Assembly (NCBI GenBank): GCA_031396695.1
Contig: JANNLG010000171.1
Coordinates: forward strand, 6,053 to 70,052
Reading direction: 5' to 3'
DNA length: 64,000 nt
Source: Deltaproteobacteria bacterium
GTDB taxonomy: Bacteria > Myxococcota_A > UBA9160 > SZUA-336
Both the position numbers and the translations under genes were made by a program. The notes under the pieces are model-generated. The model did no database searches, was not told the origin of the DNA, and saw only the letters and a list, made by a program, of their open reading frames with translations. This document shows positions 3,443-55,769 of the stretch, one piece after another (positions within the stretch are counted from its first letter, which is position 1; each line of letters opens with the position of its first letter).

Positions 3443-3474
3443 ACCCGCGCGCGCGCGATCGGGTAGCATCGGGC

Positions 3475-4425
3475 ATGGCCAAACCCTTCCGCTTCGCGGT
3501 GCAGGTCTCGACGCTCCCCGCCGACGGCTGGATCGAGCGCGTGCGCTCGTACGAGCGACTCGGCTTCTCCACGGTCTTCTGCCCCGATCACTTCGGGCCG
3601 CAGTGGGATCCGACTGCGCTGCTCGCGGCGGCCGCCGCGGTCACGACACGACTCAATGTCGGGTCGCTGGTGTACGACGTCGACTACCGCCACCCCGTGA
3701 TCCACGCCAAGGGCGCCGCGACGATCCAGCTGCTCTCCGGCGGGCGGCACGAGTTCGGCATCGGCGCGGGTTGGATGCAGACCGACTACGACGAGGCGGG
3801 CATGCCTTACGACCGCCCAGGCCTGCGCATCGAGCGGCTCGACGAGGCGCTGCAGATCATCAAGAGCATGTGGGAGAACGAACGCACCACGTTCTCGGGC
3901 AAGCACTACAAGATCACCAACATCGCGAAGGCCGCCGAGCTGCCGGCCGGCGCGCGGCCCAAGATCCTGATCGGCGGTGGAGGACCGCGCGTGTTGCGGC
4001 TCGCGGGCCGGCACGCCGACATCGTCGGCATCAATCCGAGCCTGCCCGAGGGCAAGATCACGCGAGACAGTGCCGCCGATCTCGCGCCCGAGCGGCTCGA
4101 CGAGAAGCTGCGCCACGTGCGCGCGGGCGCGGAGGCCGCGGGCCGACGTTTCGACGAGATCGAGCTGAACTCGCTGACCTTCGTGGTGGCGATCACGGAT
4201 GATGCCTCGGGCCTGCGCGCGGGCCTGGCCGCGAACAGCGGAATGTCGGTCGAGCAGGTCGCGAACTGCCCGATCTTCCTGACCGGCTCCGCGGCGGAGA
4301 TCCGCGACGGGCTCGAGAAGCGGCGCGAGCGCTACGGGCTCTCGTACATCGTGATCCAGGGCCGCGATCCGGCCATGGTCGAGAAGTTCGCCGAGCTGAT
4401 CGTGGCGCCGCTGTCCGGCAAGTGA
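3475..4425 (+). CDS. LLM-class (luciferase-like) F420-dependent oxidoreductase
   Basis: ATG at 3475 (MAKPFRFAVQV). Conserved luciferase-like monooxygenase (LLM) TIM-barrel signature (GFSTVFCPDHF, EFGIGAGW). The ORF track's N-terminal extension is R-rich junk. Confidence 0.75.
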   Translation: MAKPFRFAVQVSTLPADGWIERVRSYERLGFSTVFCPDHFGPQWDPTALLAAAAAVTTRLNVGSLVYDVDYRHPVIHAKGAATIQLLSGGRHEFGIGAGWMQTDYDEAGMPYDRPGLRIERLDEALQIIKSMWENERTTFSGKHYKITNIAKAAELPAGARPKILIGGGGPRVLRLAGRHADIVGINPSLPEGKITRDSAADLAPERLDEKLRHVRAGAEAAGRRFDEIELNSLTFVVAITDDASGLRAGLAANSGMSVEQVANCPIFLTGSAAEIRDGLEKRRERYGLSYIVIQGRDPAMVEKFAELIVAPLSGK

Positions 4426-4473
4426 CGCGCGCGAACGAGCGAGCGCATGCGCTAGCAACTTTGCCTCAAGCGG

Positions 4474-7400
4474 GTGCGCGACACCTCCGATAACTTCGTG
4501 GACATGAGCGCCACGCTGGGGACGGACCCGCCGCTCTGGGAGCGCTACACCCGAACGCACGGCCGCGTGCACCTGACGGGTCTGCAAGCGCTGCTGCGCA
4601 TGACGCTCGACCAGCTGCGCAGCGACGCGCGCGCAGGGCTGCGCACCGGCGCGTTCTTCTCCGGCTATCCGGGTTCTCCGCTCGCGGGGCTGGACGGAAT
4701 GCTGCGCAGCCTGGCGCCGCTGCTCGCGCGCTCGGACGTGCGGCTCGCGCCGGGTCTGAACGAAGAGCTCGCGGCCAGCGCGGTGGCGGGCACGCAGCTC
4801 GTCGAGACCTTCCCGCACGCCCGCTACAACGGCGTGCTCGGGGTCTGGTTCGGCAAGGCGCCCGGTCTCGATCGCGCGATCGACGCGCTGCGCCACGCCA
4901 ATTTCGTGGGCACCGGACGGCAGGGCGGTGCGCTGGCGGTCGTGGGCGACGATCCGTTCTGCAAGAGCTCGTCGCTGCCGAGCCACAGCGAGCACGCCTT
5001 CGCGCACGCCTACATTCCGTTGTTCGCGCCGGCCGACCCGGGCGACGTGCTGCGCCTCGGACGGCTGGCGTTCGCGCTCTCGCGCTACACCGGATTGTGG
5101 AGCGGACTGCGCATGGTGGCCGACGTGGCCGACTCGGGCCGGATCGTCACGCTCGCCGACGCTGAGCCCGCGCTCGTGCTGCCGGAGTTCGTGAATCCGG
5201 CCGGCCGGCCGGCTCGGCGCATCGACACGAATCTGCTGCCGCCGAACGTGCTGCGCATCGAGCAGGATCTGGTCTTCGGCAGACTCGAAGCCGTGCACCG
5301 CTTCGCGCGCGCGAACGGCTTGAATCCGATCACGTCGAAGCACGCGCGCGATCGCGTGGGCCTCGTCGCTTCGGGCTCGCTCTACCGCGAGCTCGAGAGC
5401 GCGCTCGCGCTGCTCGGCCTCGACGAGCCCGAGCGCGAGCGACTCGGCGTGCGGCTGCTCAAGCTCGACCTGGTCTGGCCGCTCGAGACCGAGCGCATGC
5501 GCGAGTTCGCATCCGGACTCGAGGCGATCGTGGTGGTGGACTCGCGCCGTGCCTGGCTCGAGGAGCAGGTGCGCGCGGCGTTGTACGAGGGCGGGTCGCG
5601 CGCGCGCGTGCTCGGCCAGCACGACGAGCGCGGCGCGGCCTGGCTCGCGCGCCGCCACGAGCTCACCGGCGGTACGCTCGCGCAGGATCTCGCGCCCTGG
5701 CTGGGCGAGAAGCTCGGCGAGCCGAAGCTGGTTTCTCGCCTCGCGCCGCTCGAAGCCGCGCTCGCGCGCGCGTCCCACGCGGCCGAACCGTCGCGCGCGC
5801 CGCACTTCTGCAGCGGCTGTCCGCACTCGTCGTCGACCAAGCTGCCCGAGGGCTCGCTCGCCGGCGGCGGCATCGGCTGTCACACCATGGCGCTGCTCAT
5901 GCCCGAGCGCGCAGTGCGGCTGCTCGGCGCGATGGGTTCGGAGGGTGCGCACTGGATCGGTCTCGCGCCCTACACCGAGACGCGACACCTGTTCCAGAAC
6001 CTGGGCGACGGCACCTACTTCCACTCCGGCCGGCTGGCGGTTCGCGCCTGCGTCGAGGCCGGTGCGACGATCACCTTCAAGCTGCTCTGGAACGGAGTCG
6101 TCGCGATGACCGGCGGCCAGCACGCCGTGGGCGCCAAGCCGCTCGCGGCGCTGGTGCGGGATCTGCTGGCCGACGGGGTGCTCTGCGTGGTGGCGATGAG
6201 CGACGACCGCGAGGTCGCCGCGCTCGAAACCTACGAGCCGCGTCTTCGGGTGGTGGACCGGAACGGCTGGGACGGCGCCATGCGCGAGCTGCGCGAGCAG
6301 AGTGGCGTCAGCGTCATGATCTGGGACGAGCTGTGCGCGAACGAGAAGCAGCGGCTCGAACGCCGCGGCGTGCTCGCTCGGCCGAGCGCGCGCGTGGTGA
6401 TCAACGAAGACGTGTGCGAGGGCTGCGGCGACTGCGGCGTCAAGTCTTCGTGCGTGTCGCTGCGGCCGGTCGAGACCGCGCTCGGCCGCAAGACGCGCGT
6501 GCACGCGGGCTCGTGCAGCGACGATCGCGCCTGCCTCGACGGGGACTGCCCGGCGTTCCTCTCGGTCGAGGGTGCGACGGCCGCAGCGCTGCCCTTCGAG
6601 TCCCTGCTGACGGGGCCGCTGCCCGAGCCGCCCGCGCCGATCTGGGACGGCGATCGCTACGAGCTGCAGCTGGTCGGCATCGGCAGCACGGGCGTGGTCA
6701 CGATCGACGCGCTGCTGGTGCGCGCCGCCGAGCACGACGGCTTGTACGCGATGCACCTCGACCAGACCGGCCTCGCGCAGCGCGGCGGCAAGGTCGTGTC
6801 GCACTGCGTGCTCGCGCGCACCGAACTGACGGGCAGCCCGCGCATCGAGCCGGGCCGCGCGGACGTGCTGCTCGCCTTCGATCCGCTCGGCTCCTCGGAT
6901 CGCGACGCACTGCGCGCGCTCGACCCGGGCCGCACGCGCGCGGTGGTGCACGAGCTGTACGTGCCGACCGGCGCCGACGTGGGCGCGCCCGGCTTCCAGC
7001 CGCCCGACCTCTCCTTGCTGATCGAGCCGCTGCGCGAAGCCACGCGCTCGCTCGAGCGCGTTCCCGCGGAGCTGCTCGCGGAAGTCGCGCTCGGCCAGTC
7101 GCTGTCGGCGAATCTGGTGCTGCTCGGCTTCGCCTGGCAGCGCGGACTCGTGCCGGTCTCGCGACTCGCGCTCGAACGCGCGGTGCGAGAGAACGGTGTC
7201 GCGGTCGAGGCCAACCTGCGCGCGATCGCGCTCGGCCGCGCGGCCGCGGTCGACGCGGAGCTGGTCGCGAAGCTCTTGCACGACGCGACTCCGCCGGCGA
7301 TCGGCGACGAGCCGGCGCTCGATCGCGCCGCGCGCGCGCTCGGTCCGGCCTGGAGCGCGGTGCACGAAGCGCTCGGCCGCTTCCAGCACGCGAAGGACTC

Positions 7401-8031
7401 CGATCGCGTCACTTCGCTGATCGCATCGTTCGCGGCCGATCTGGTCGACTACCAGGGCAAGCGGCTGGCGTCGCGCTACTGCGCGCGCGTCGCGCGCGTG
7501 GCCGAGGCCGCGGCCGCCGTCGATCCGGAATCGCTCGCGCTCACCGAAGCCGCTTCGCGCGAGCTCTACCGCGTGCTCGCGTACAAGGACGAGTACGAGG
7601 TCGCGCGGCTCTTGCTGCGCGGTCCGCACCGGCGCTGGCTGCGGCGCCATTCCGCGCACCAGCCGAGCATCCGCTACCACCTGCACCCGCCGCTGCTGCG
7701 CGCGCTGGGCTTGAAATCGAAGCTCGCGCTCGGAGCGTGGATCGAGCCGGTCTTCGCCGCGCTCGCGGCCGCGCGCCGGTTGCGCGGAACCGCGCTCGAT
7801 CCGTTCGGCTGGACGCGCGCGCGCCGGCTCGAGCGCGAGCTCGCGAGCTGGTACGAGGGCGTGCTCGACGCGGTCGCCGCGCACGTGCGCGCCGAGAATC
7901 GCGCGGAAGCGCTCGAAATCGTGCGGCTGGCCGAGGGCATCCGCGGCTACGAGGGGATCAAGGAAGCGCGCGCCGCCGAGCTGCGGCCGATCATCGAGCG
8001 CAAGCTCGCGGCCCTCGTCGCGCCTCGCTGA
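4474..8031 (+). CDS. Indolepyruvate:ferredoxin oxidoreductase family protein, fused alpha/beta type
   Basis: 1185-aa single ORF with a 4Fe-4S cysteine cluster (CEGCGDCGVKSSC...CLDGDCP) and IOR-like N-terminus (ERYTRTHGRVHLTGLQALLRM). The start may instead be the ATG at 4504. Confidence 0.8.
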   Translation: MRDTSDNFVDMSATLGTDPPLWERYTRTHGRVHLTGLQALLRMTLDQLRSDARAGLRTGAFFSGYPGSPLAGLDGMLRSLAPLLARSDVRLAPGLNEELAASAVAGTQLVETFPHARYNGVLGVWFGKAPGLDRAIDALRHANFVGTGRQGGALAVVGDDPFCKSSSLPSHSEHAFAHAYIPLFAPADPGDVLRLGRLAFALSRYTGLWSGLRMVADVADSGRIVTLADAEPALVLPEFVNPAGRPARRIDTNLLPPNVLRIEQDLVFGRLEAVHRFARANGLNPITSKHARDRVGLVASGSLYRELESALALLGLDEPERERLGVRLLKLDLVWPLETERMREFASGLEAIVVVDSRRAWLEEQVRAALYEGGSRARVLGQHDERGAAWLARRHELTGGTLAQDLAPWLGEKLGEPKLVSRLAPLEAALARASHAAEPSRAPHFCSGCPHSSSTKLPEGSLAGGGIGCHTMALLMPERAVRLLGAMGSEGAHWIGLAPYTETRHLFQNLGDGTYFHSGRLAVRACVEAGATITFKLLWNGVVAMTGGQHAVGAKPLAALVRDLLADGVLCVVAMSDDREVAALETYEPRLRVVDRNGWDGAMRELREQSGVSVMIWDELCANEKQRLERRGVLARPSARVVINEDVCEGCGDCGVKSSCVSLRPVETALGRKTRVHAGSCSDDRACLDGDCPAFLSVEGATAAALPFESLLTGPLPEPPAPIWDGDRYELQLVGIGSTGVVTIDALLVRAAEHDGLYAMHLDQTGLAQRGGKVVSHCVLARTELTGSPRIEPGRADVLLAFDPLGSSDRDALRALDPGRTRAVVHELYVPTGADVGAPGFQPPDLSLLIEPLREATRSLERVPAELLAEVALGQSLSANLVLLGFAWQRGLVPVSRLALERAVRENGVAVEANLRAIALGRAAAVDAELVAKLLHDATPPAIGDEPALDRAARALGPAWSAVHEALGRFQHAKDSDRVTSLIASFAADLVDYQGKRLASRYCARVARVAEAAAAVDPESLALTEAASRELYRVLAYKDEYEVARLLLRGPHRRWLRRHSAHQPSIRYHLHPPLLRALGLKSKLALGAWIEPVFAALAAARRLRGTALDPFGWTRARRLERELASWYEGVLDAVAAHVRAENRAEALEIVRLAEGIRGYEGIKEARAAELRPIIERKLAALVAPR

Positions 8032-12060: not shown

Positions 12061-12861
12061 ATGCGAGTCGAACGCATTCCGACGCTGCGCGACAACTACA
12101 CGTACCTGGTGATCGATCCGGCTTCGAACGAGGCGGCGGTGATCGACGCGCCGGAGGCCGCGCCGGTGATCGCGCGCGTCGCGAAGCTCGGGGTGCGCGT
12201 GACGAAGGTGATGTCGACGCACCACCACCTCGATCACAGCGGCGCGAATCCCGAGCTCGCCGCGCACTTCCGCGCGCCCGTGATCGGACACGCCTCCGAC
12301 GCCGCCCGCATTCCGGGCTTCACCACCGGCGTGGAGGAAGGCGAGCGCGTGCGCGTCGGCGCGCTCGAGGCCGACGTGCTGTTCATCCCGGCGCATACGC
12401 GCGGGCACGTCGCCTACGTGTTTCCCGGCGCCGTGTTCTGCGGTGACACGCTCTTCGCCGGCGGCTGCGGGCGGCTCTTCGAGGGCACCCCGCAGATGAT
12501 GCACGAGGCGCTGAACGTGAAGCTCGCGAAGCTCGCCGACGCGACGCTCGTCTACTGCGGGCACGAGTACACGGAGGCCAACCTGCGTTTCGCGCTCACG
12601 CTCGAGCCGGGCAACTCGGCGCTCGCCGCGCGCATCACGACGGTGAAGGCGCGCCGCGCGCACGCCGCGAGCGATTGGCACGACGCGACGGAGGCGGAGA
12701 TGACCGTGCCCTCGACGCTCGCCGACGAGCGCGCGACCAATCCGTTCATGCGTACGTCGGCGGCGGAGCTCGTCGCGAGCGTGCGCGCGCAGCTGCCCGG
12801 TACGTCGTCCGATCCCGTCAGCGTGCTCGGCGCGGTGCGCGCGCTGAAGGACAAGTTCTGA
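12061..12861 (+). CDS. gloB: Hydroxyacylglutathione hydrolase (glyoxalase II)
   Basis: Metallo-beta-lactamase motif THHHLDHSG and glyoxalase II C-terminal domain. 266 aa. Confidence 0.85.
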   Translation: MRVERIPTLRDNYTYLVIDPASNEAAVIDAPEAAPVIARVAKLGVRVTKVMSTHHHLDHSGANPELAAHFRAPVIGHASDAARIPGFTTGVEEGERVRVGALEADVLFIPAHTRGHVAYVFPGAVFCGDTLFAGGCGRLFEGTPQMMHEALNVKLAKLADATLVYCGHEYTEANLRFALTLEPGNSALAARITTVKARRAHAASDWHDATEAEMTVPSTLADERATNPFMRTSAAELVASVRAQLPGTSSDPVSVLGAVRALKDKF

Positions 12862-13508
12862 GCGAGCGCTGCTCATTCCTCGGGCTGTTCGCGTTGCTCT
12901 TGCTCTTGCCGATCGGTGCGTCCGCGGATCTCGGCCATCGACCGGAAGATCGGGTCACGCTCACACACGTCGACAACCAGGTCATCGCCGTCACCGCGTC
13001 GGGCTTCGCGGCGGTGCTCTCGAAGCTCGAGCTCGGCGAGTCGGTGATCGCGCTGCGCAGTCAGGGCAACGTCGGCGTCGCGGTCACGACGCGGCGCCTG
13101 CTCGCGATCCAGACCCGCGCCGCCAATTTCGTCGAGCTGCGCTACCGCGTTTCCGAGTCCGCGCCGAGCGAGCACGACCTGCAGGTGCGCGACGGCCTGA
13201 TCGTCGCCGCGTTCCCGGCGCGGATCCTCGCCTTCTCGCCGCAGATCGCCGCCTGGCAGGAGTTCGGGCTCGGGCCAGGCGAGAAGCCGATCGAAGTGAT
13301 CGCCGAGCAGAACGTCGCGGTGGTCGTCACGCCGCGCCGCGCGGTCGCGTTCTCGCCGCTCTCCGCCGGCTTCGTGCCTTATCCGCTGACGCCCGGCGAG
13401 GATCCGGAACGCAGCACGCTCGGCGACGACTCGATCACGCTGATCCTTCCGCACCGGGTGCTGATCTTCCGCGCGGGCGACTCGGCCTGGTCGAGCGTCA
13501 ATCGCTGA
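12858..13508 (+). CDS. Secreted repeat protein with five ~40-aa repeats. Start uncertain: CTG 12858 or TTG 12894.
   Basis: The sense frame has an N-terminal signal-peptide-like segment (FLGLFALLLLLPIGASA|DLG) and five repeats of the form hhVhhTxxRhhAF. The competing minus-strand ORF 12873..13712 is D/E/R-rich junk. Confidence 0.45.
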   Translation: MSERCSFLGLFALLLLLPIGASADLGHRPEDRVTLTHVDNQVIAVTASGFAAVLSKLELGESVIALRSQGNVGVAVTTRRLLAIQTRAANFVELRYRVSESAPSEHDLQVRDGLIVAAFPARILAFSPQIAAWQEFGLGPGEKPIEVIAEQNVAVVVTPRRAVAFSPLSAGFVPYPLTPGEDPERSTLGDDSITLILPHRVLIFRAGDSAWSSVNR

Positions 13509-15093: not shown

Positions 15094-15435
15094 TCACGAC
15101 AGCGCGTCGGTGTAGGCCTCCGCGTTCCAACCGACCAGCAGCGTGTCGCCGACCACCAGCGCCGGCGCGCGCAGATTTCCGGTCGGCCCGAGGACGGCCT
15201 CGACGATCTCGTCGGGCGCTTTTCCGCCGGGCGTGAAGCTGCGCAGCGCTTTGCCTTTCGCCACGACAACGCGCCTCGCGGCCTTCACCAGCTTCGCGGC
15301 GTCGGCCTTGCCGAGCTTCTTGCTCGCAGAAACCGTCGCGACCGGCTCGATCTTCCTGGCGTCCAGAAACTTGGACGCTCGTTCGCAACTGGTTCAACCG
15401 TTGCGGTGGTAGTACCAGTCGATGCGCTTGGCCAT
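15094..15435 (-). CDS. Spx/ArsC-family thioredoxin-fold protein with in-frame TGA at codon 14. Candidate selenoprotein with a U-T-S-C redox motif.
   Basis: ATG at 15435 with SD GGAGG 9 nt upstream. In-frame TGA at 15394..15396. Readthrough gives MAKRIDWYYHRNG-U-TSCERASKFLDARKIEP..., which aligns with the Spx N-terminus ...SCTSCRKARAWLEEHDI. The C-terminus (LRAPALVVGDTLLVGWNAEAY) is typical of the ArsC/Spx family. Total length 113 aa. Confidence 0.55.
15359..15378 (-). other. Putative bacterial SECIS hairpin (7-bp stem, 6-nt loop AGUUUC)
   Basis: The mRNA sequence GCGUCCA-AGUUUC-UGGACGC begins 16 nt after the UGA. The loop G is about +24 nt from the UGA. Confidence 0.35.
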
Positions 15436-15776: not shown

Positions 15777-16367
15777 ATGAAAAACCCAAATCGTTCAATG
15801 GCTTGCGTTCTCGCCCTGCTGGCGTTGGCGGTCTCGGGCTGCGGCTACAACTCGATCCAGGGAGCCGACGAGAACGTCAAGGCCGCTTGGGCCGAGGTGG
15901 AGAACCAGTATCAGCGCCGCATGGACCTGATCCCGAATCTGGTCGCCACCGTGAAGGGTGCGGCGAACTTCGAGAAGGAGACGCTCGAAGCCGTGATCCA
16001 GGCGCGCGCCAGCGCGACCCAGGTGAAGATGGACGCGAGCGTGCTCGACGACCCGGAGGCGTTCAAGAAGCTGCAGGAGGCTCAGAGTTCGTTGTCGGGC
16101 GCGCTCTCGCGACTGTTGGTGGTTTCGGAGCGCTACCCGGAGCTGAAGGCGACCGCGGCGTTCAGAGACCTGCAAGCGCAGCTCGAGGGCACGGAGAATC
16201 GCATCACCGTCGCCCGCAAGCGTTACGTCGAGACGGTGGCCGAGTACAACAAGCTGGTGCGTTTCTTCCCGACCAACCTGACCGCGCGCTTCATCCTGGG
16301 CGTGGAGCCGCGGCCGACCTTCGAGGCCACGCCCGGCTCCGAGAAGCCGCCCGAGGTGAAATTCTGA
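15777..16367 (+). CDS. lemA: LemA family lipoprotein
   Basis: Lipobox LAVSGC and a typical LemA body (NVKAAWAEVENQYQRRMDLIPNLV). ATG at 15777. Confidence 0.85.
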   Translation: MKNPNRSMACVLALLALAVSGCGYNSIQGADENVKAAWAEVENQYQRRMDLIPNLVATVKGAANFEKETLEAVIQARASATQVKMDASVLDDPEAFKKLQEAQSSLSGALSRLLVVSERYPELKATAAFRDLQAQLEGTENRITVARKRYVETVAEYNKLVRFFPTNLTARFILGVEPRPTFEATPGSEKPPEVKF

Positions 16368-17125
16368 GCGCGAGCCCCGCGCGCGCCGCGCTGATCGTTC
16401 TCGCGCTCGTCGGTGTCGCGTTCGCTCGCGATGCGCGCGCGCTCGAGATTCCCGAGCTGCGCGCGCACGTGCTCGATCGCGCGGGTCTGTTGCCGACGCA
16501 GTCGGCGCAGTCGCTCGAGCGAACACTCAGCGACTTCGAGCGCTCGACCGGTCACCAGGTGGTGGTGCACGTCACGCCATCGCTCGAGGGGCTCGAGATC
16601 GAGGACTACTCGATCCAGACCGCCGAAGCCTGGAAGGTCGGCCAGCAGAGCCTCGACAACGGCGTGATCCTCACGGTCGCGCCGAACGAGCGACGCGTGC
16701 GGATCGAGGTCGGCTACGGGCTCGAGGGCGTGCTGCCCGACGCGCTCTCCGCGCGCATCGTGCGAGACGTGATCCTGCCCGAGTTCCGCGCGGGCCGGAT
16801 GGATCAGGGCGTGCTCGCGGGCACGCGCGCGATTCTCGGCGTGATCTCCGGCGAGGTCCTGCCGGTCCCCGCGCAAGGCGGTCGACCTGCGCCATCGAAG
16901 TGGATCGTGGGGCTCTGGATCGTGTTCATCGTCGTGATGCTCCTCTCGCGCGGCCTCTTCTTCGCGCCGCCGTTCGGTGGACCCGGCATGCGGCGCGGCC
17001 GGAGCTCGAGTGGAATGCCGCCGTTCGGCGGCGGTTTCGGGCGCGGTGGCGGGGGCTTCGGTGGCGGCGGATTCTCGGGTGGCGGCGGCGGCTTCGGCGG
17101 CGGCGGCGCGTCGGGACGCTGGTGA
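16364..17125 (+). CDS. TPM-domain (TLP18.3/Psb32/MOLO-1, YgcG-like) protein with Gly-rich C-terminal tail. Probable CTG start overlapping the lemA stop.
   Basis: Signal peptide MSASPARAALIVLALVGVAFA. TPM domain (HVLDRAGLL...TGHQVVVHVTPSL). C-terminal TM segment and GGGFGGGG tail. There is no ATG, GTG or TTG in frame upstream of the signal peptide. Confidence 0.7.
   Translation: MSASPARAALIVLALVGVAFARDARALEIPELRAHVLDRAGLLPTQSAQSLERTLSDFERSTGHQVVVHVTPSLEGLEIEDYSIQTAEAWKVGQQSLDNGVILTVAPNERRVRIEVGYGLEGVLPDALSARIVRDVILPEFRAGRMDQGVLAGTRAILGVISGEVLPVPAQGGRPAPSKWIVGLWIVFIVVMLLSRGLFFAPPFGGPGMRRGRSSSGMPPFGGGFGRGGGGFGGGGFSGGGGGFGGGGASGRW
17028..17112 (+). repeat. GGC/GGT-rich low-complexity coding repeat (Gly-rich tail of the TPM protein)
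   Basis: Encodes GGGFGRGGGGFGGGGFSGGGGGFGGGG. Confidence 0.6.
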
Positions 17126-52080: not shown

Positions 52081-53535
52081 ATGGTCGGGTGGCTCTGGCT
52101 CGCTCCGTTCATCCTCGCCTTCACACCGACGGCGATCTGGCTGTACCAGCGCGGCACGCAATCGGCGTTCAGCGAGGTGCACACGCTGTTCATGCCGCTC
52201 GTGCTCGCGTACCTGATTCGCGAGCAGCTGAAGCTCGATCCGGACCCGACCCCGCGCTCGTCAGCACTGGGCTTCCTGTTCGTCGTGCCCGCGCTGGCGC
52301 TGGTCGCGCTCGACGCGGCGATGCACACGCAGATGCTGGGCGCGATCGCGCTGGTGATTGCGCTGCCGGGGATCTCGCTGCTCCTGCTCGGCACGCGCCG
52401 CACGCGCGAGCTCGCGTTCCCGCTCGCGCTGGCCGTGTTCATCGTGCCGATTCCCACGGGCATGCTGACGCCGCTCTACAGCGTGCTGCGGCCGATCGCC
52501 GCGATCGGCACGACCTGGCTGGTGCCGCTGTTCGGCATGCCGATCGCGCGCGTCGGCACGGCGCTCTCGGTGCCGGGACTCGCGGTCGAGGTCGCGGACA
52601 ACTGCTCCGGCTGGTCGTCGCTGCAGGCCGCGGTGATCACGGCGCTGGTGCTCGCGCACTTCTCGAGCTCGAAACAGCGGAGGCTCGCGCTACTGCTCTC
52701 CGCCATCCCGGTCGCGATCGTCTGCAACATCCTGCGCGTGACCGCGCTCGTGTTGCTGGCGCAACGCTACGGCGCCGAGCTGCTCGACACCACGCTGCAT
52801 CCCGCGTCGGGCGTGATCCTGTTCGGTGTCGTGATCGCGGTGCTGTTCGCGATCGCGGGACCCGACGCCATGCGCTCGGCCAAGGCTTCGGGCCAGCGCG
52901 TCGTCGTCGCGACGCGCTACGCGCTGGCGCTCGCGGCGCTCTGCGCGCTCGCGCTGATCCCGGTCGGCATGCACTCGACCGCGCGCCTGCGCGGCGACGA
53001 CTGCGCGAACGCCGCCGCGCTCGTGCCCTCGGACGGAAGCGTCGATCCCGCCCGCGCGCTGTTGATGCAGCAGCAGTACAAGGCCTCGCAGTGGCGCGAG
53101 GGTACGCTGCCGGCAACCGCGGACACGCCGGCGCTTCGCTACGCCGTGATTCGCAACTACGAACCGAGGCTGCTCTACTACCGCGGCTCGCGCCGGCTCT
53201 GGCAGGACGTCGAGCCTGGCGCCGACACCATCGAGTGGCTGGAGTCCGACGACGGCCGGCTGCCGATCGTGCGCTCGCAGCTCGCGGGCGATCGGCCGGG
53301 GCAGCCGCGCGCGGTGATCGCGTCGCTGCTCGTCTACGAGGGCGAGCCCGTCGAAACCGGCTGGCGCGCGCAGCTCCGCGCGGCGCCGCGCCAGATGTTC
53401 ACGGGCAGTCGCCCGATGACCTTGTTCACGGTACGGGGTGACGTGCAGGGCGGCGATCACGCGGCGGTGGAAAAGCGCGCGCACGCGTACCTGCTCGATT
53501 CGTGGCGAACCTACCGGGCTCTGTGCCGGCACTGA
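52081..53535 (+). CDS. Exosortase (Xrt) with fused C-terminal EpsI-like periplasmic domain
   Basis: Eight-TM core with conserved Cys (VADNCSGWSSL) and Arg (CNILRV) active-site motifs. Extra C-terminal ~180-aa soluble domain. Confidence 0.7.
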   Translation: MVGWLWLAPFILAFTPTAIWLYQRGTQSAFSEVHTLFMPLVLAYLIREQLKLDPDPTPRSSALGFLFVVPALALVALDAAMHTQMLGAIALVIALPGISLLLLGTRRTRELAFPLALAVFIVPIPTGMLTPLYSVLRPIAAIGTTWLVPLFGMPIARVGTALSVPGLAVEVADNCSGWSSLQAAVITALVLAHFSSSKQRRLALLLSAIPVAIVCNILRVTALVLLAQRYGAELLDTTLHPASGVILFGVVIAVLFAIAGPDAMRSAKASGQRVVVATRYALALAALCALALIPVGMHSTARLRGDDCANAAALVPSDGSVDPARALLMQQQYKASQWREGTLPATADTPALRYAVIRNYEPRLLYYRGSRRLWQDVEPGADTIEWLESDDGRLPIVRSQLAGDRPGQPRAVIASLLVYEGEPVETGWRAQLRAAPRQMFTGSRPMTLFTVRGDVQGGDHAAVEKRAHAYLLDSWRTYRALCRH

Positions 53536-55769
53536 GCACACGCACCGCGTTCCGAACCTGCCCGATCTGCGAGGCGAGCTGTGGACTCGCGCTCTCGCTC
53601 GAGGGCGAGCGCGTGCTGCGTGTGCGCGGAGACGAGCGCGACGTCACCAGCCGCGGCTACCTGTGCCCGAAGGGCGCCGCGCTCGGCGAGCTGCACCACG
53701 ACCCCGACCGGCTGCGCACACCGCTCGTGCGCGGGCCCGAGGGTCTGCGCGCGGCGAGCTGGGACGAGGCGTTCGCGGAGATCGAGCGGCGCCTGCAGCC
53801 GGTGATCGAGCGACACGGCCGCGGATCGGTCGCCGTCTACGTCGGCAATCCCACCGCGCACGACTACTCGCTCTACGCCTATCTGCCCGCGCTGCTGCTG
53901 GCGGCCGGCACGCACCAGCTCTACACGGCGGGCACGGTCGACCAGCAGCCGAAGCAGGTCGCGGTGAACTGCATGTTCGGCACGGCCTGGGGCATTCCCG
54001 TGCCGGACGTCGACCGCACGCAGTATCTGCTCGTGCTGGGCGCGAACCCGGCGGCTTCAAACGGGAGCCTGCTGGTCGCGCCGGATCTACAGGGCCGGCT
54101 CGACGCGATCCGCGCGCGCGGCGGGCGCGTGGTGGTGGTCGATCCGCGCCGCACGAAGACCGCCGAACGCGCCGATGAATGGCTGCCGATCCGACCTGGC
54201 ACCGACGCGCTGTTCCTGTTCGCGCTGGTGAACACGCTGTTCGCGGAGGGGCGCGTCGCACTCGGCGCGCTCGGCGCGCACGTGAACGGAGTCGAGCGGC
54301 TGCGCGAGCTCGCGGCGGAGTTCACGCCGGAATCGGTCGAGGCGCGTTGCCGGATTCCCGCAACCACGATTCGCAGGATCGCGCGCGAGCTGGCGAGCGC
54401 CGAGCGCGCCGCCGTGTACGGCCGCGTCGGCACCTGCACGCAGGAGTTCGGCACGCTCGCGAGTTGGGGGATCGACGCGCTGAACGTGCTCACCGGAAAC
54501 CTCGATCGCGTCGGCGGCGTGATGTGGAGCCGGCCGCTGGCCGGCGGCGACCACACGCGCGGCGCGAAGGGGCGCGGACCGGAGTTCCAGGTCGGCCGCT
54601 TCCGCACGCGCGTGCGCGGGGCGCCCGAGGTTCTGTTCCAGCTGCCCGCCGCCTGCCTCGCCGAAGAGATCGACACCCCCGGCGAGGGACAGATCCGCGC
54701 GCTCGTGGTGATCGCCGGAAATCCCGCACTCTCGGTGCCCGACGGCGAGCGGCTCGACCGCGCGCTGGCGCAGCTCGACTGTCTGGTCTCGCTCGACCTG
54801 TTCGTGAACGAGACCGCGCGCCACGCACACGTCGTGCTGCCGTCGCCCTCGCCGCTGCAACAGCCGCACTACGACGCCCTGCTCTATCAGGTCGCCGTGC
54901 GCAACGCCGCACGCTACTCGAAGCCCGTCCTGCCGCTCGACGTCGACGCGCTGCCGGAGTGGCAGATCATGCTGCGCCTGGCCGCGATCTTCGCCGGCCA
55001 GGGCGCGAAGGCGGACGCGAACGCGCTCGACGACGGCTACTTCGCCGCGCGGCTACACGCACAGGTGTCGGACCCGAGCTCGCCGATCCACGGCCGCGAC
55101 CCGGGCGAGCTGGTCGCGCTCGCCGCCGGACGGCGCGGGCCCGAGCGCATCCTCGACCTCGAACTGCGCACCGGTCCCTACGGAGACGGCTTCGGCGCCG
55201 TGCCGGGCGGGCTCTCGCTCGCGGAGCTCGAGCGCCACCCGCACGGGCTCGATCTCGGTCCGCTCGAGCCTGCGCTGCCGGACGTGCTGCGCACGCCGAG
55301 CGGCAAGATCGAGCTCGCGCATCCATACCTGGCCGCCGACCTGCCGCGGCTGCGCGAGCGCCTGTCGCGTCCTGACGACGACGGGCTGCTGCTGATCGGC
55401 CGGCGCGACCTGCGCTCGAACAACTCGTGGCTGCACAACGCGCCGTCGCTGATGACCGGTCGCGAGCGCTGCACGCTGGTCGTGCACCCCGCCGACGCCG
55501 CCGAGCGCGGCCTCGGCGGCGGCGATCTCGCGCAGATCCGTTCCGCGGCTGCGACGCTGGTGGTCGCGGTAGAGGTCAGCGACGAGGTCGCGCGCGGCGT
55601 CGTGTGCTTGCCGCACGGCTTCGGACACGGCCGGGCGGGCGCGCGTCTCACGGTCGCCGCACGCCGACCCGGCGTGAACTCGAACGCGCTCTCGGATGCC
55701 CGCGCGCTCGACGCGCCGTCGGGAACCGCGGTCGTGAACGGCATCCCGGTCGAGGTCGCACGCGCCTGA
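53523..55769 (+). CDS. Molybdopterin-dependent oxidoreductase (MopB superfamily, formate dehydrogenase/nitrate reductase-like catalytic subunit). Start is GTG 53523 or CTG 53532.
   Basis: N-terminal 4Fe-4S motif (CPICEASCGL...CPKG). Mo-bisPGD domains. No in-frame TGA, so this is the Cys-type enzyme. Confidence 0.75.
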   Translation: MPALSTRTAFRTCPICEASCGLALSLEGERVLRVRGDERDVTSRGYLCPKGAALGELHHDPDRLRTPLVRGPEGLRAASWDEAFAEIERRLQPVIERHGRGSVAVYVGNPTAHDYSLYAYLPALLLAAGTHQLYTAGTVDQQPKQVAVNCMFGTAWGIPVPDVDRTQYLLVLGANPAASNGSLLVAPDLQGRLDAIRARGGRVVVVDPRRTKTAERADEWLPIRPGTDALFLFALVNTLFAEGRVALGALGAHVNGVERLRELAAEFTPESVEARCRIPATTIRRIARELASAERAAVYGRVGTCTQEFGTLASWGIDALNVLTGNLDRVGGVMWSRPLAGGDHTRGAKGRGPEFQVGRFRTRVRGAPEVLFQLPAACLAEEIDTPGEGQIRALVVIAGNPALSVPDGERLDRALAQLDCLVSLDLFVNETARHAHVVLPSPSPLQQPHYDALLYQVAVRNAARYSKPVLPLDVDALPEWQIMLRLAAIFAGQGAKADANALDDGYFAARLHAQVSDPSSPIHGRDPGELVALAAGRRGPERILDLELRTGPYGDGFGAVPGGLSLAELERHPHGLDLGPLEPALPDVLRTPSGKIELAHPYLAADLPRLRERLSRPDDDGLLLIGRRDLRSNNSWLHNAPSLMTGRERCTLVVHPADAAERGLGGGDLAQIRSAAATLVVAVEVSDEVARGVVCLPHGFGHGRAGARLTVAARRPGVNSNALSDARALDAPSGTAVVNGIPVEVARA

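Follow-up and report, generated by a model that had tools for sequence, protein, structure and literature searches.

Translational coupling by termination-reinitiation has been described for neighbouring genes whose stop and start codons overlap by four nucleotides (nt), in the form ATGA and also GTGA and TTGA (Huber et al. 2019, PMC6728339; review PMC12548453). A conserved CTG start codon was proven for rpsL of Deinococcus with mass-spectrometric support (Baudet et al. 2010, PMC2830850), and CTG starts were also given for Deide_03051 (Deinococcus-Thermus) and reported for plasmid RepA (PMC2830850). E. coli infC and pcnB carry AUU start codons (PMC3592434 and references therein). The present analysis deals with three gene junctions of the form CTGA in a stretch of 64,000 nt from a Deltaproteobacteria bacterium (GenBank assembly GCA_031396695.1, contig JANNLG010000171.1, positions 6,053 to 70,052 of the forward strand; hereafter the window), namely between gloB and the gene of a secreted repeat protein (12858, junction 1), between lemA and a TPM-domain gene (16364, junction 2) and between an exosortase gene and a MopB-family gene (53532, junction 3). 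A first-pass annotation of the window had proposed that CTG is used at all three as a coupled initiation codon. CTGA is not mentioned in PMC6728339 or PMC12548453, and a literature search on CTGA overlaps and CUG reinitiation found nothing specific.

The repeat protein (12858) and the TPM protein (16364) are probably translated from a CUG codon which overlaps the UGA stop codon of the upstream gene, while at 53532 an ATGA overlap appears to have turned into CTGA, with the start either at this CTG or at a GTG. The CTG start is well supported at junctions 1 and 2 by the comparison of related lineages, the closest of which are metagenome-assembled Myxococcota. The strings ttCTGAgcg (12856-12864 and 16362-16370) and caCTGAgca (53530-53538) are present as the first-pass annotation had read them, and at all three junctions the CTG lies in the frame of the downstream open reading frame (ORF) and overlaps the upstream TGA as NTGA. 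The N-termini read from the CTG are (L/M)SERCSFLGLFALLLLLPIGASA at 12858, (L/M)SASPARAALIVLALVGVAFA at 16364 and (L/M)STRTAFRTCPIC at 53532. The start codons of orthologues agreed with the proposal, with CTG in 7/7 and 13/13 lineages at junctions 1 and 2, or canonical starts at the same position in others. As a start codon, CTG is strongly supported by comparison for gloB/repeat protein and lemA/TPM; for exosortase/MopB it is not settled, a GTG being located 9 nt upstream. The following features belong to junction 1.

12061..12861, + strand: gloB, hydroxyacylglutathione hydrolase, taken from the ORF list; Pfam Lactamase_B and HAGH_C extend to the last residue; ends ...ALKDKF-TGA
12846..12851, + strand: Shine-Dalgarno-like (SD-like) element GAAGGA inside gloB, 6 nt before the CTG; anti-SD duplex -5.4 kcal/mol
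12858..12860, + strand: proposed CTG start of the repeat protein, overlapping the gloB stop as CTGA (from the sequence and 7 lineages)
12859-12861, + strand: gloB stop codon TGA
12858..13508, + strand: gene of the uncharacterised secreted repeat protein, 216 amino acids (aa) from the CTG
12858-12926, + strand: predicted signal peptide of the repeat protein, MSERCSFLGLFALLLLLPIGASA

Junction 1, with the local sequence ...aag ttC TGA gcg..., was compared in seven lineages (the window, L001, L097, L094, L095, L101 and L102) at a protein identity of 56-90%. In 7/7 the upstream gene ends in aag/aga/aaa-ttc-TGA with the frame of the repeat protein open through the CTG, and in 7/7 the peptide after the CTG has a basic n-region followed by a hydrophobic core and closes with an AxA-type end (across lineages MSERCSFLGLFALLLLLPIGASA, MSERRPWLGLCACLLLAPLPARA, MSRACSLVGLCAWLWIVPVVAAA, MSERARVLALSVCLGIAPLVAGA and MRPRHAALALALLVAFATSAARA). 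The distance from the signal peptide to the conserved motif (R/Q)PE(D/E)(R/Q)V is constant despite the divergence of the nucleotide sequences. An upstream in-frame canonical start is absent in five of the seven lineages, L094 and L095 among them, and the first downstream canonical codon is located at +52 in L001, +41 in L094 and +62 in L095, in each case within the conserved mature part. The signal-peptide codons of the window's repeat protein have a G+C content at third codon positions (GC3) of 0.88, and the onset of coding by codon usage was placed 6 codons after the CTG. The element GAAGGA is kept in the relatives; the same bases encode the conserved LKDKF C-terminus of GloB. Distant homologues of the repeat protein with an ATG or GTG of their own (P0155, P0157-P0159) have complete signal peptides. 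The in-frame TTG at 12675, 61 codons upstream of the CTG, was rejected as a start, as it is missing in most relatives and would add a long Arg-rich out-of-frame extension.

The repeat protein itself matched no Pfam family; outside this Myxococcota group only a few relatives of 31-39% identity were found. In one relative, located on a 1.23-Mb ENA contig, the calls P0154 and P0156 run from the C-terminal part of GloB into the N-terminal half of the repeat protein, whose C-terminal quarter is fused to something else; this pattern suggests frameshift errors of a long-read assembly and not a real fusion.

For junction 2 the features are as follows.

15777..16367, + strand: lemA, lipoprotein-type LemA family; Pfam LemA extends to the last residue; ends ...PPEVKF-TGA; stop codon at 16365-16367
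16353..16359, + strand: SD-like element GAGGTGA inside lemA, 4 nt before the CTG; duplex -7.2 kcal/mol
16364..16366, + strand: proposed CTG start of the TPM/YgcG-family protein, overlapping the lemA stop as CTGA (13 lineages)
16364..17125, + strand: TPM-domain (YgcG-like) gene, 253 aa from the CTG; Pfam TPM_phosphatase; signal peptide within 16364-16441

Downstream of lemA, Pfam identified two TPM-domain proteins, and the first of them is the subject of junction 2 (...aaa ttC TGA gcg...). Here the window was compared with 12 other lineages, whose proteins are 48-88% identical (L001, L097, L094, L095/096, L002, L003, L004, L014, L026, L107, L109 and L111/112). All 13 have ttcTGA with the TPM frame open through the CTG, and in all of them the CTG leads directly into one or two basic residues, then a hydrophobic core and finally an Ala-rich end. 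The claim that lemA/TPM has no canonical start which would preserve the signal peptide was confirmed: the nearest in-frame ATG, GTG or TTG codons in the window are a TTG 159 codons upstream, inside lemA in the other frame, and a GTG 35 codons downstream. In 9/13 lineages no ATG, GTG or TTG occurs before codon +25 to +39, and upstream candidates lie inside lemA at a distance of 159 codons or more, with none in L001. The upstream TTG (15887) was discarded as a TPM start; it is absent in most relatives and would imply a long Arg-rich out-of-frame extension.

The signal-peptide region of junction 2 behaves as coding sequence by several measures. GC3 is 0.83-1.0, substitutions by codon position (5/1/7, 3/1/8 and 8/5/13) show a third-position bias, the signal peptides vary in length among lineages but always by whole codons, and a codon-usage log-odds scan places the onset of coding 1 codon before the CTG. 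The SD-like GAGGTGA is present in most relatives, is weaker in L095, and also encodes a conserved Glu-Val. As judged from these alignments, no near-cognate codon other than the CTG is shared by all lineages. TPM homologues with a canonical start sufficiently far upstream have signal peptides (P0002, P0007, P0080, P0116 and P0119).

More distant junction types were surveyed by a metagenome scan with the TPM alignment, in which the matches listed are mostly relatives of 40-48% identity. Among these matches, lemA and TPM are joined by ATGA in L043 and L088, by GTGA in L054, by TTGA in L042 and by TGATG in L047, L060 and L090. Since distant lineages carry canonical starts there, a start at the upstream stop is taken as the ancestral architecture of the lemA/TPM pair.

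Taken together, junctions 1 and 2 show coding sequence downstream of the CTG: GC3 amounts to 0.75-1.0, the corresponding value for second positions (GC2) is about 0.5-0.7, and all length differences among lineages are multiples of three. No canonical start able to encode the conserved N-terminus exists at these two junctions, whereas junction 3 has such starts in the form of GTGs. The comparison shows that the predicted downstream proteins of junctions 1 and 2 require initiation at the upstream stop or right beside it, for which CTG is the sole shared candidate. Why a CTG stands there in place of a canonical start is probably explained by the upstream genes: GloB and LemA both end in a conserved Lys-Phe, and a C-terminal Phe codon (TTC in 95%) followed by TGA gives CTGA.

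The features of junction 3 are listed below.

52081..53535, + strand: exosortase, EpsH family; Pfam Exosortase_EpsH; ends ...YRALCRH-TGA; stop codon at 53533-53535
53502, + strand: GTG, 10 codons upstream of the CTG; public MopB start (755 aa)
53523..53525, + strand: alternative GTG start for MopB, 3 codons (9 nt) upstream of the CTG
53532..53534, + strand: CTG, one candidate MopB start, at the position of the ATG in the relatives' ATGA
53532..55769, + strand: MopB-family molybdopterin oxidoreductase, 745 aa from the CTG; Pfam Molybdop_Fe4S4, Molybdopterin and Molydop_binding

Here (...cgg caC TGA gca...) the proposed CTG is present, but the two in-frame GTGs were not mentioned in the first-pass annotation. 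Three related lineages, L098 (91% identity), L099 and L100, have ATGA exactly where the window has the CTGA of 53532. Their MopB proteins begin with MKPRTAFRTCP, MKRTAYRTCP and MTSRKAFRTCP, respectively, to be compared with (L)STRTAFRTCP in the window, and the closest MopB homologues are 743-752 aa long. The alignment thus shows that the CTG of junction 3 occupies the likely ancestral start position. With a start at this CTG, 9 residues precede the CxxCxxxC motif, the most frequent spacing among 118 MopB homologues; from the GTG at 53523 the lead is 12 residues, as in 23/118 homologues, and from the GTG at 53502 it is 19 residues, as in 1/118. An SD-like element was sought before the three MopB start candidates and none was found (-2.5 kcal/mol at junction 3). 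By these alignments MopB would start either at the CTG of 53532 or at the GTG 9 nt upstream, which could equally serve, and the choice between the two is left undecided.

The three CTGA junctions were also set against the remaining start-stop overlaps of the window. Ten canonical 4-nt overlaps between same-strand neighbours were found, six GTGA, two ATGA and two TTGA, in accordance with the statement of the first-pass annotation that such NTGA overlaps occur elsewhere in this DNA.

17122, 24774, 25637, 27539, 29161, 34775 (- strand), 37220, 38686, 44143 (- strand) and 58642: canonical 4-nt start-stop overlaps

Judged from these ten cases in 64 kb, the 4-nt overlap is the dominant operon junction of this genome; the junction between the first and the second TPM gene, at 17122, is one of them. 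All three CTGA junctions resemble the ten in joining co-directional genes with 4-nt NTGA geometry and a downstream frame of -1. They differ from the ten in the proposed start codon, which is CTG and not ATG, GTG or TTG, the codons that the initiator tRNA accepts efficiently. Relative to the third-position composition, A and T are enriched at the first base of the overlaps and C is depleted though present (3/13), which fits a CTG that is disfavoured yet tolerated. An SD-like element is absent at several of the ten canonical overlaps.

Several observations weigh against CTG starts. CTGA is the compositional default in the window, which has a G+C content of 71%. A gene map based on codon-usage scoring gave 56 genes, and of the 54 predicted to be complete 38 end in TGA, preceded by C in 23 of the 38, so that CTGA is the most frequent gene end. 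Third codon positions are C in 48%, G in 43%, T in 5% and A in 4%, and Phe is encoded by TTC and TTT at 650:35 (95:5). The downstream frame is open across the stop at six CTGA junctions, three of which (3439, 8028 and 13505) have an ordinary ATG or GTG start a few codons further on. The frequency of CTGA, which the first-pass annotation had offered as a measure, therefore carries no weight as support for CTG starts and was ruled out as an argument. Since the upstream Phe codon and stop dictate the CTG, its conservation provides no independent support. Similarly, the SD-like elements double as Lys-Asp and Glu-Val codons, and selection on them is inseparable from selection on the upstream protein. 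Canonical codons from which shorter products might arise do occur within the signal peptide in part of the lineages, at junction 1 as GTG+6 in L101 and as TTG+11/12 in L102, L097 and the window, and at junction 2 in 4/13 lineages as GTG+5 (L094, L095), TTG+8 (L003) and ATG+13 (L111). Junction 3 has canonical GTGs at -3 and -10 codons, and its CTG occurs in this lineage only. Finally, CUG initiation in E. coli amounts to 1-2% of AUG initiation (10.1101/063800).

The identity of the 9-nt string TTCTGAGCG at junctions 1 and 2 was confirmed, but not the meaning attached to it: two copies stand against 0.98 expected, two or more copies arose in 27/100 shuffles, and the string is merely a Phe codon and stop followed by a Ser codon, so that it was ruled out as a signal.

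The CTGA at 8028 ends a 1189-aa gene (4465-8031, large POR/DUF6537-type) and is followed by a small conserved ORF in the frame of the CTG, which has a GTG at codon +6, making a CTG start unnecessary. In L001 the counterpart of this junction (1731) has its codon-usage onset exactly at the CTG. A search for further CTGA starts in the relatives' loci found none beyond the junctions already known, the 8028 type having its GTG at +6.

The first alternative is that the public gene calls are right, with starts at TTG 12894, GTG 16469 and GTG 53502 or 53523, no signal peptides, and CTGA as a by-product of composition; overall, this is considered unlikely. It draws on CTGA being the default gene end, on the three other open-frame CTGA junctions that are not starts and, for MopB, on the 12-residue lead from GTG 53523 being common among homologues. 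The database calls agree with it exactly: the repeat protein of the window is on public record from TTG 12894 with 204 aa, the TPM protein is on record as P0001 (100% identical, 218 aa, start at GTG 16469, no signal peptide), and MopB is called with 755 aa. Against these calls, the stretch from the CTG to the called start is coding at junctions 1 and 2 by composition, substitutions and in-frame indels, and the signal-peptide architecture is conserved in 7 and 13 lineages. In L001, L094 and L095 a start at the first canonical codon, 41-62 codons in, would remove conserved mature sequence; homologues with a sufficiently upstream canonical start do carry signal peptides; and for MopB the 19-residue lead from GTG 53502 is nearly unique among homologues. 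The canonical downstream starts remain as a fallback in the lineages having them, and for MopB.

The pattern of the public calls in relatives bears on the same question. Of 29 close TPM homologues in the alignment, 18 have their called start at or beyond the mature motif (V/I)PELRAHVLD and lack a signal peptide, and the gene finders evidently found no permitted start in these 18. For about 30 close homologues of the repeat protein the calls begin at scattered Leu, Val and Met codons inside or beyond the hydrophobic core, and none includes the n-region. Because standard gene finders disallow CTG, annotation would have lost the predicted signal peptides of these proteins, along with those of dozens of relatives.

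Quite improbable as well is a non-canonical start elsewhere, at ATT 16361, at ATC +1 in L002 or at a CTG or ATC inside the signal peptide, or an unconventional event that puts Leu and not N-formylmethionine (fMet) first. An in-frame ATT does occur: the window has one at 16361, as have L094, L097 and L003 at the corresponding place, and L094 and L095 carry one at the gloB junction too; AUU and AUC are likewise initiators of 1-2% in E. coli (10.1101/063800), and ATC is proven for dnaA in Deinococcus (PMC2830850). However, the codon before the CTG is not conserved: at junction 2 it is ATT, GTT or TTT, with GTT or TTT in most lineages, and ATT 16361 was rejected as a start on this ground. At junction 2 it is also separated from the SD-like element by only 1 nt, starts at internal CTGs would remove the basic n-region, and the stop-overlapping CTG is the only such codon that every lineage shares.

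It is very improbable that the downstream genes have lost their starts and are decaying or silent, or that the CTGs are assembly errors. All sequences are metagenome-assembled, and the CTG of junction 3 is lineage-confined and replaces an ATG, as either account would have it. But the same CTGA recurs in 7 and 13 lineages that different studies assembled independently, the ORFs are intact with codon bias kept, and the signal-peptide indels are in frame. At junction 3 the last exosortase codon, AAA or CGA in the relatives, is CAC in the window, and because this upstream codon differs at two positions the CTG is not a single-base error.

The least probable explanation, a programmed -1 frameshift at ...AAR-TTC-TGA which would fuse GloB to the repeat protein and LemA to TPM with the SD-like element and the stop as stimulators, has in its favour the -1 position of the downstream frame, the presence of both the SD-like element and the UGA, and GCT-TTC in L026, which permits perfect re-pairing of tRNA-Phe in the -1 frame, but there is no X-XXY-YYZ heptamer (the bases before TTC vary among AAG, AAA, AGA, CAG, CAA and GCT), folds of the next 80 nt are no more stable than those of shuffles (z = +0.67, +1.14 and +0.07), the Pfam domains of the upstream proteins extend precisely to the stop, the fusion would contain an internal signal peptide and join cytoplasmic GloB to a secreted protein, and other lineages start at the same junctions, with ATGA, GTGA, TTGA or TGATG for lemA/TPM among the matches listed and with ATGA for MopB in three.

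Under translation from the overlapping CTG, a ribosome ending gloB or lemA would terminate at the UGA, with the SD-like element located 4-6 nt upstream of the CTG. Either this terminating ribosome or a newly recruited 30S subunit would then pair fMet-tRNA with the CUG by a first-position mismatch, as for GUG and UUG, and the product would be Met-Ser-... followed by a cleavable signal peptide. Termination on the overlapping UGA may aid initiation, be it through reinitiation or because local structure is unfolded. In the predicted local folds of 12830-12890 and 16336-16396 the SD-like element and the CTG are partly base-paired, and in the latter GAGA...UUCU closes a hairpin over GAGGUGA. Such pairing would suit coupling by unfolding, but the energies match those of shuffles (z = +0.4). 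At 53532, an ancestral ATGA would have turned into CTGA in the lineage of the window, leaving initiation to the CTG or to the GTG 9 nt upstream.

If CTG starts at junctions 1 and 2 are true, an uncultured Myxococcota group uses CTG starts for secreted proteins in two conserved operons, and localisation and function predictions for the TPM and repeat-protein families are wrong. The junctions would then represent a case of start-codon degradation, in which a C-terminal Phe and GC3 bias force CTGA while lower-GC relatives have TTGA, ATGA or TGATG, and would provide a concrete system for studying near-cognate tolerance in termination-coupled reinitiation versus de novo initiation. The principle is unchanged, CTG being already listed as a bacterial initiator, although a rare one. 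A wider reading can be offered only tentatively and is rather doubtful: CTGA might be a fourth working start-stop overlap class in this Myxococcota group, perhaps in high-GC bacteria generally, or start-codon discrimination might be relaxed. In the former case, just-terminated ribosomes would accept CUG far better than de novo assays suggest, about a quarter of the 4-nt overlaps (3/13 in the window, about 5% of its genes) would start at CTG, and N-termini and signal peptides would be systematically mis-annotated across many high-GC genomes. In the latter, the relaxation would act via the anticodon stem of the initiator tRNA or via IF3; the tRNA-fMet variant M1 (PMC11497404) serves as a comparison for weak discrimination against CUG.

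Junctions 1 and 2 lie in a conserved gene block, located at about 10.6-20.6 kb of the window, which is also found in L094, L095, L097, L102, L107 and L111. The block begins with a PD-(D/E)XK nuclease, a BFD-like ferredoxin, gloB, the repeat protein, a small ORF and a GlcNAc 2-epimerase on the opposite strand, and it ends with an ArsC-like selenoprotein, a BFD-like ferredoxin, lemA, two TPM genes, Fur and GAF-PtsP. Two further elements of the window are listed here.

15094-15435, - strand: likely selenoprotein gene with an in-frame TGA at 15394-15396
4281-4365, - strand: tRNA-Ala (anticodon CGC) predicted by ARAGORN, the sole tRNA of the window

The selenoprotein candidate starts at ATG 15435 with a strong SD sequence (GGAGGGTGG), has its TGA after 13 codons in the context WYYHRNG-U-TSC, and continues as an ORF to 15094. 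When C is put in place of U, the 113-aa version matches NCBIfam NF041106 'ArsC family (seleno)protein' with 112 bits (cut-off 85). L094 and L097 share the in-frame TGA, which in the window is followed by a hairpin (z = -2.0). The relatives' calls comprise only 79 aa, and the longest ORF from ATG, GTG or TTG in the window is 64 aa. The predicted tRNA-Ala gene is located inside the 3' part of a + strand ORF (3472-4425) that scores as coding, and one of these two predictions is probably wrong.

At the frameshift sites of prfB (+1) and dnaX (-1), an SD-like element is located near the UGA or shift site where an ORF ends, and an ORF continues in another frame. The junctions analysed here differ from both in that no slippery sequence or stimulatory structure is present, the domains end at the stop and a fusion would be topologically senseless. 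Like the AUU of infC, the CTG would be a weak near-cognate start kept by selection just after the stop of another gene, with translation partly by reinitiation; unlike that AUU, which serves the autoregulation of IF3, it has no evident regulatory role, and a coding constraint from the overlapping gene is likelier. As in Deinococcus rpsL, a lineage-conserved CTG occupies the sole position which keeps the conserved N-terminus and was missed by automatic annotation, whereas the junction CTGs are known from sequence alone, overlap an upstream stop and are forced by a C-terminal Phe codon. Known overlap coupling is matched at junctions 1 and 2 by same-strand neighbours and by a proposed start which shares three bases with the UGA context; an SD-like element lies within the upstream gene as well, although its cause is ambiguous, since it also encodes conserved residues. 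Unlike in the surveyed overlaps, the first base is C, giving a near-cognate start outside the surveys and outside standard gene finders. CTG starts and 4-nt overlaps are each already known, and junctions 1 and 2 would combine both.

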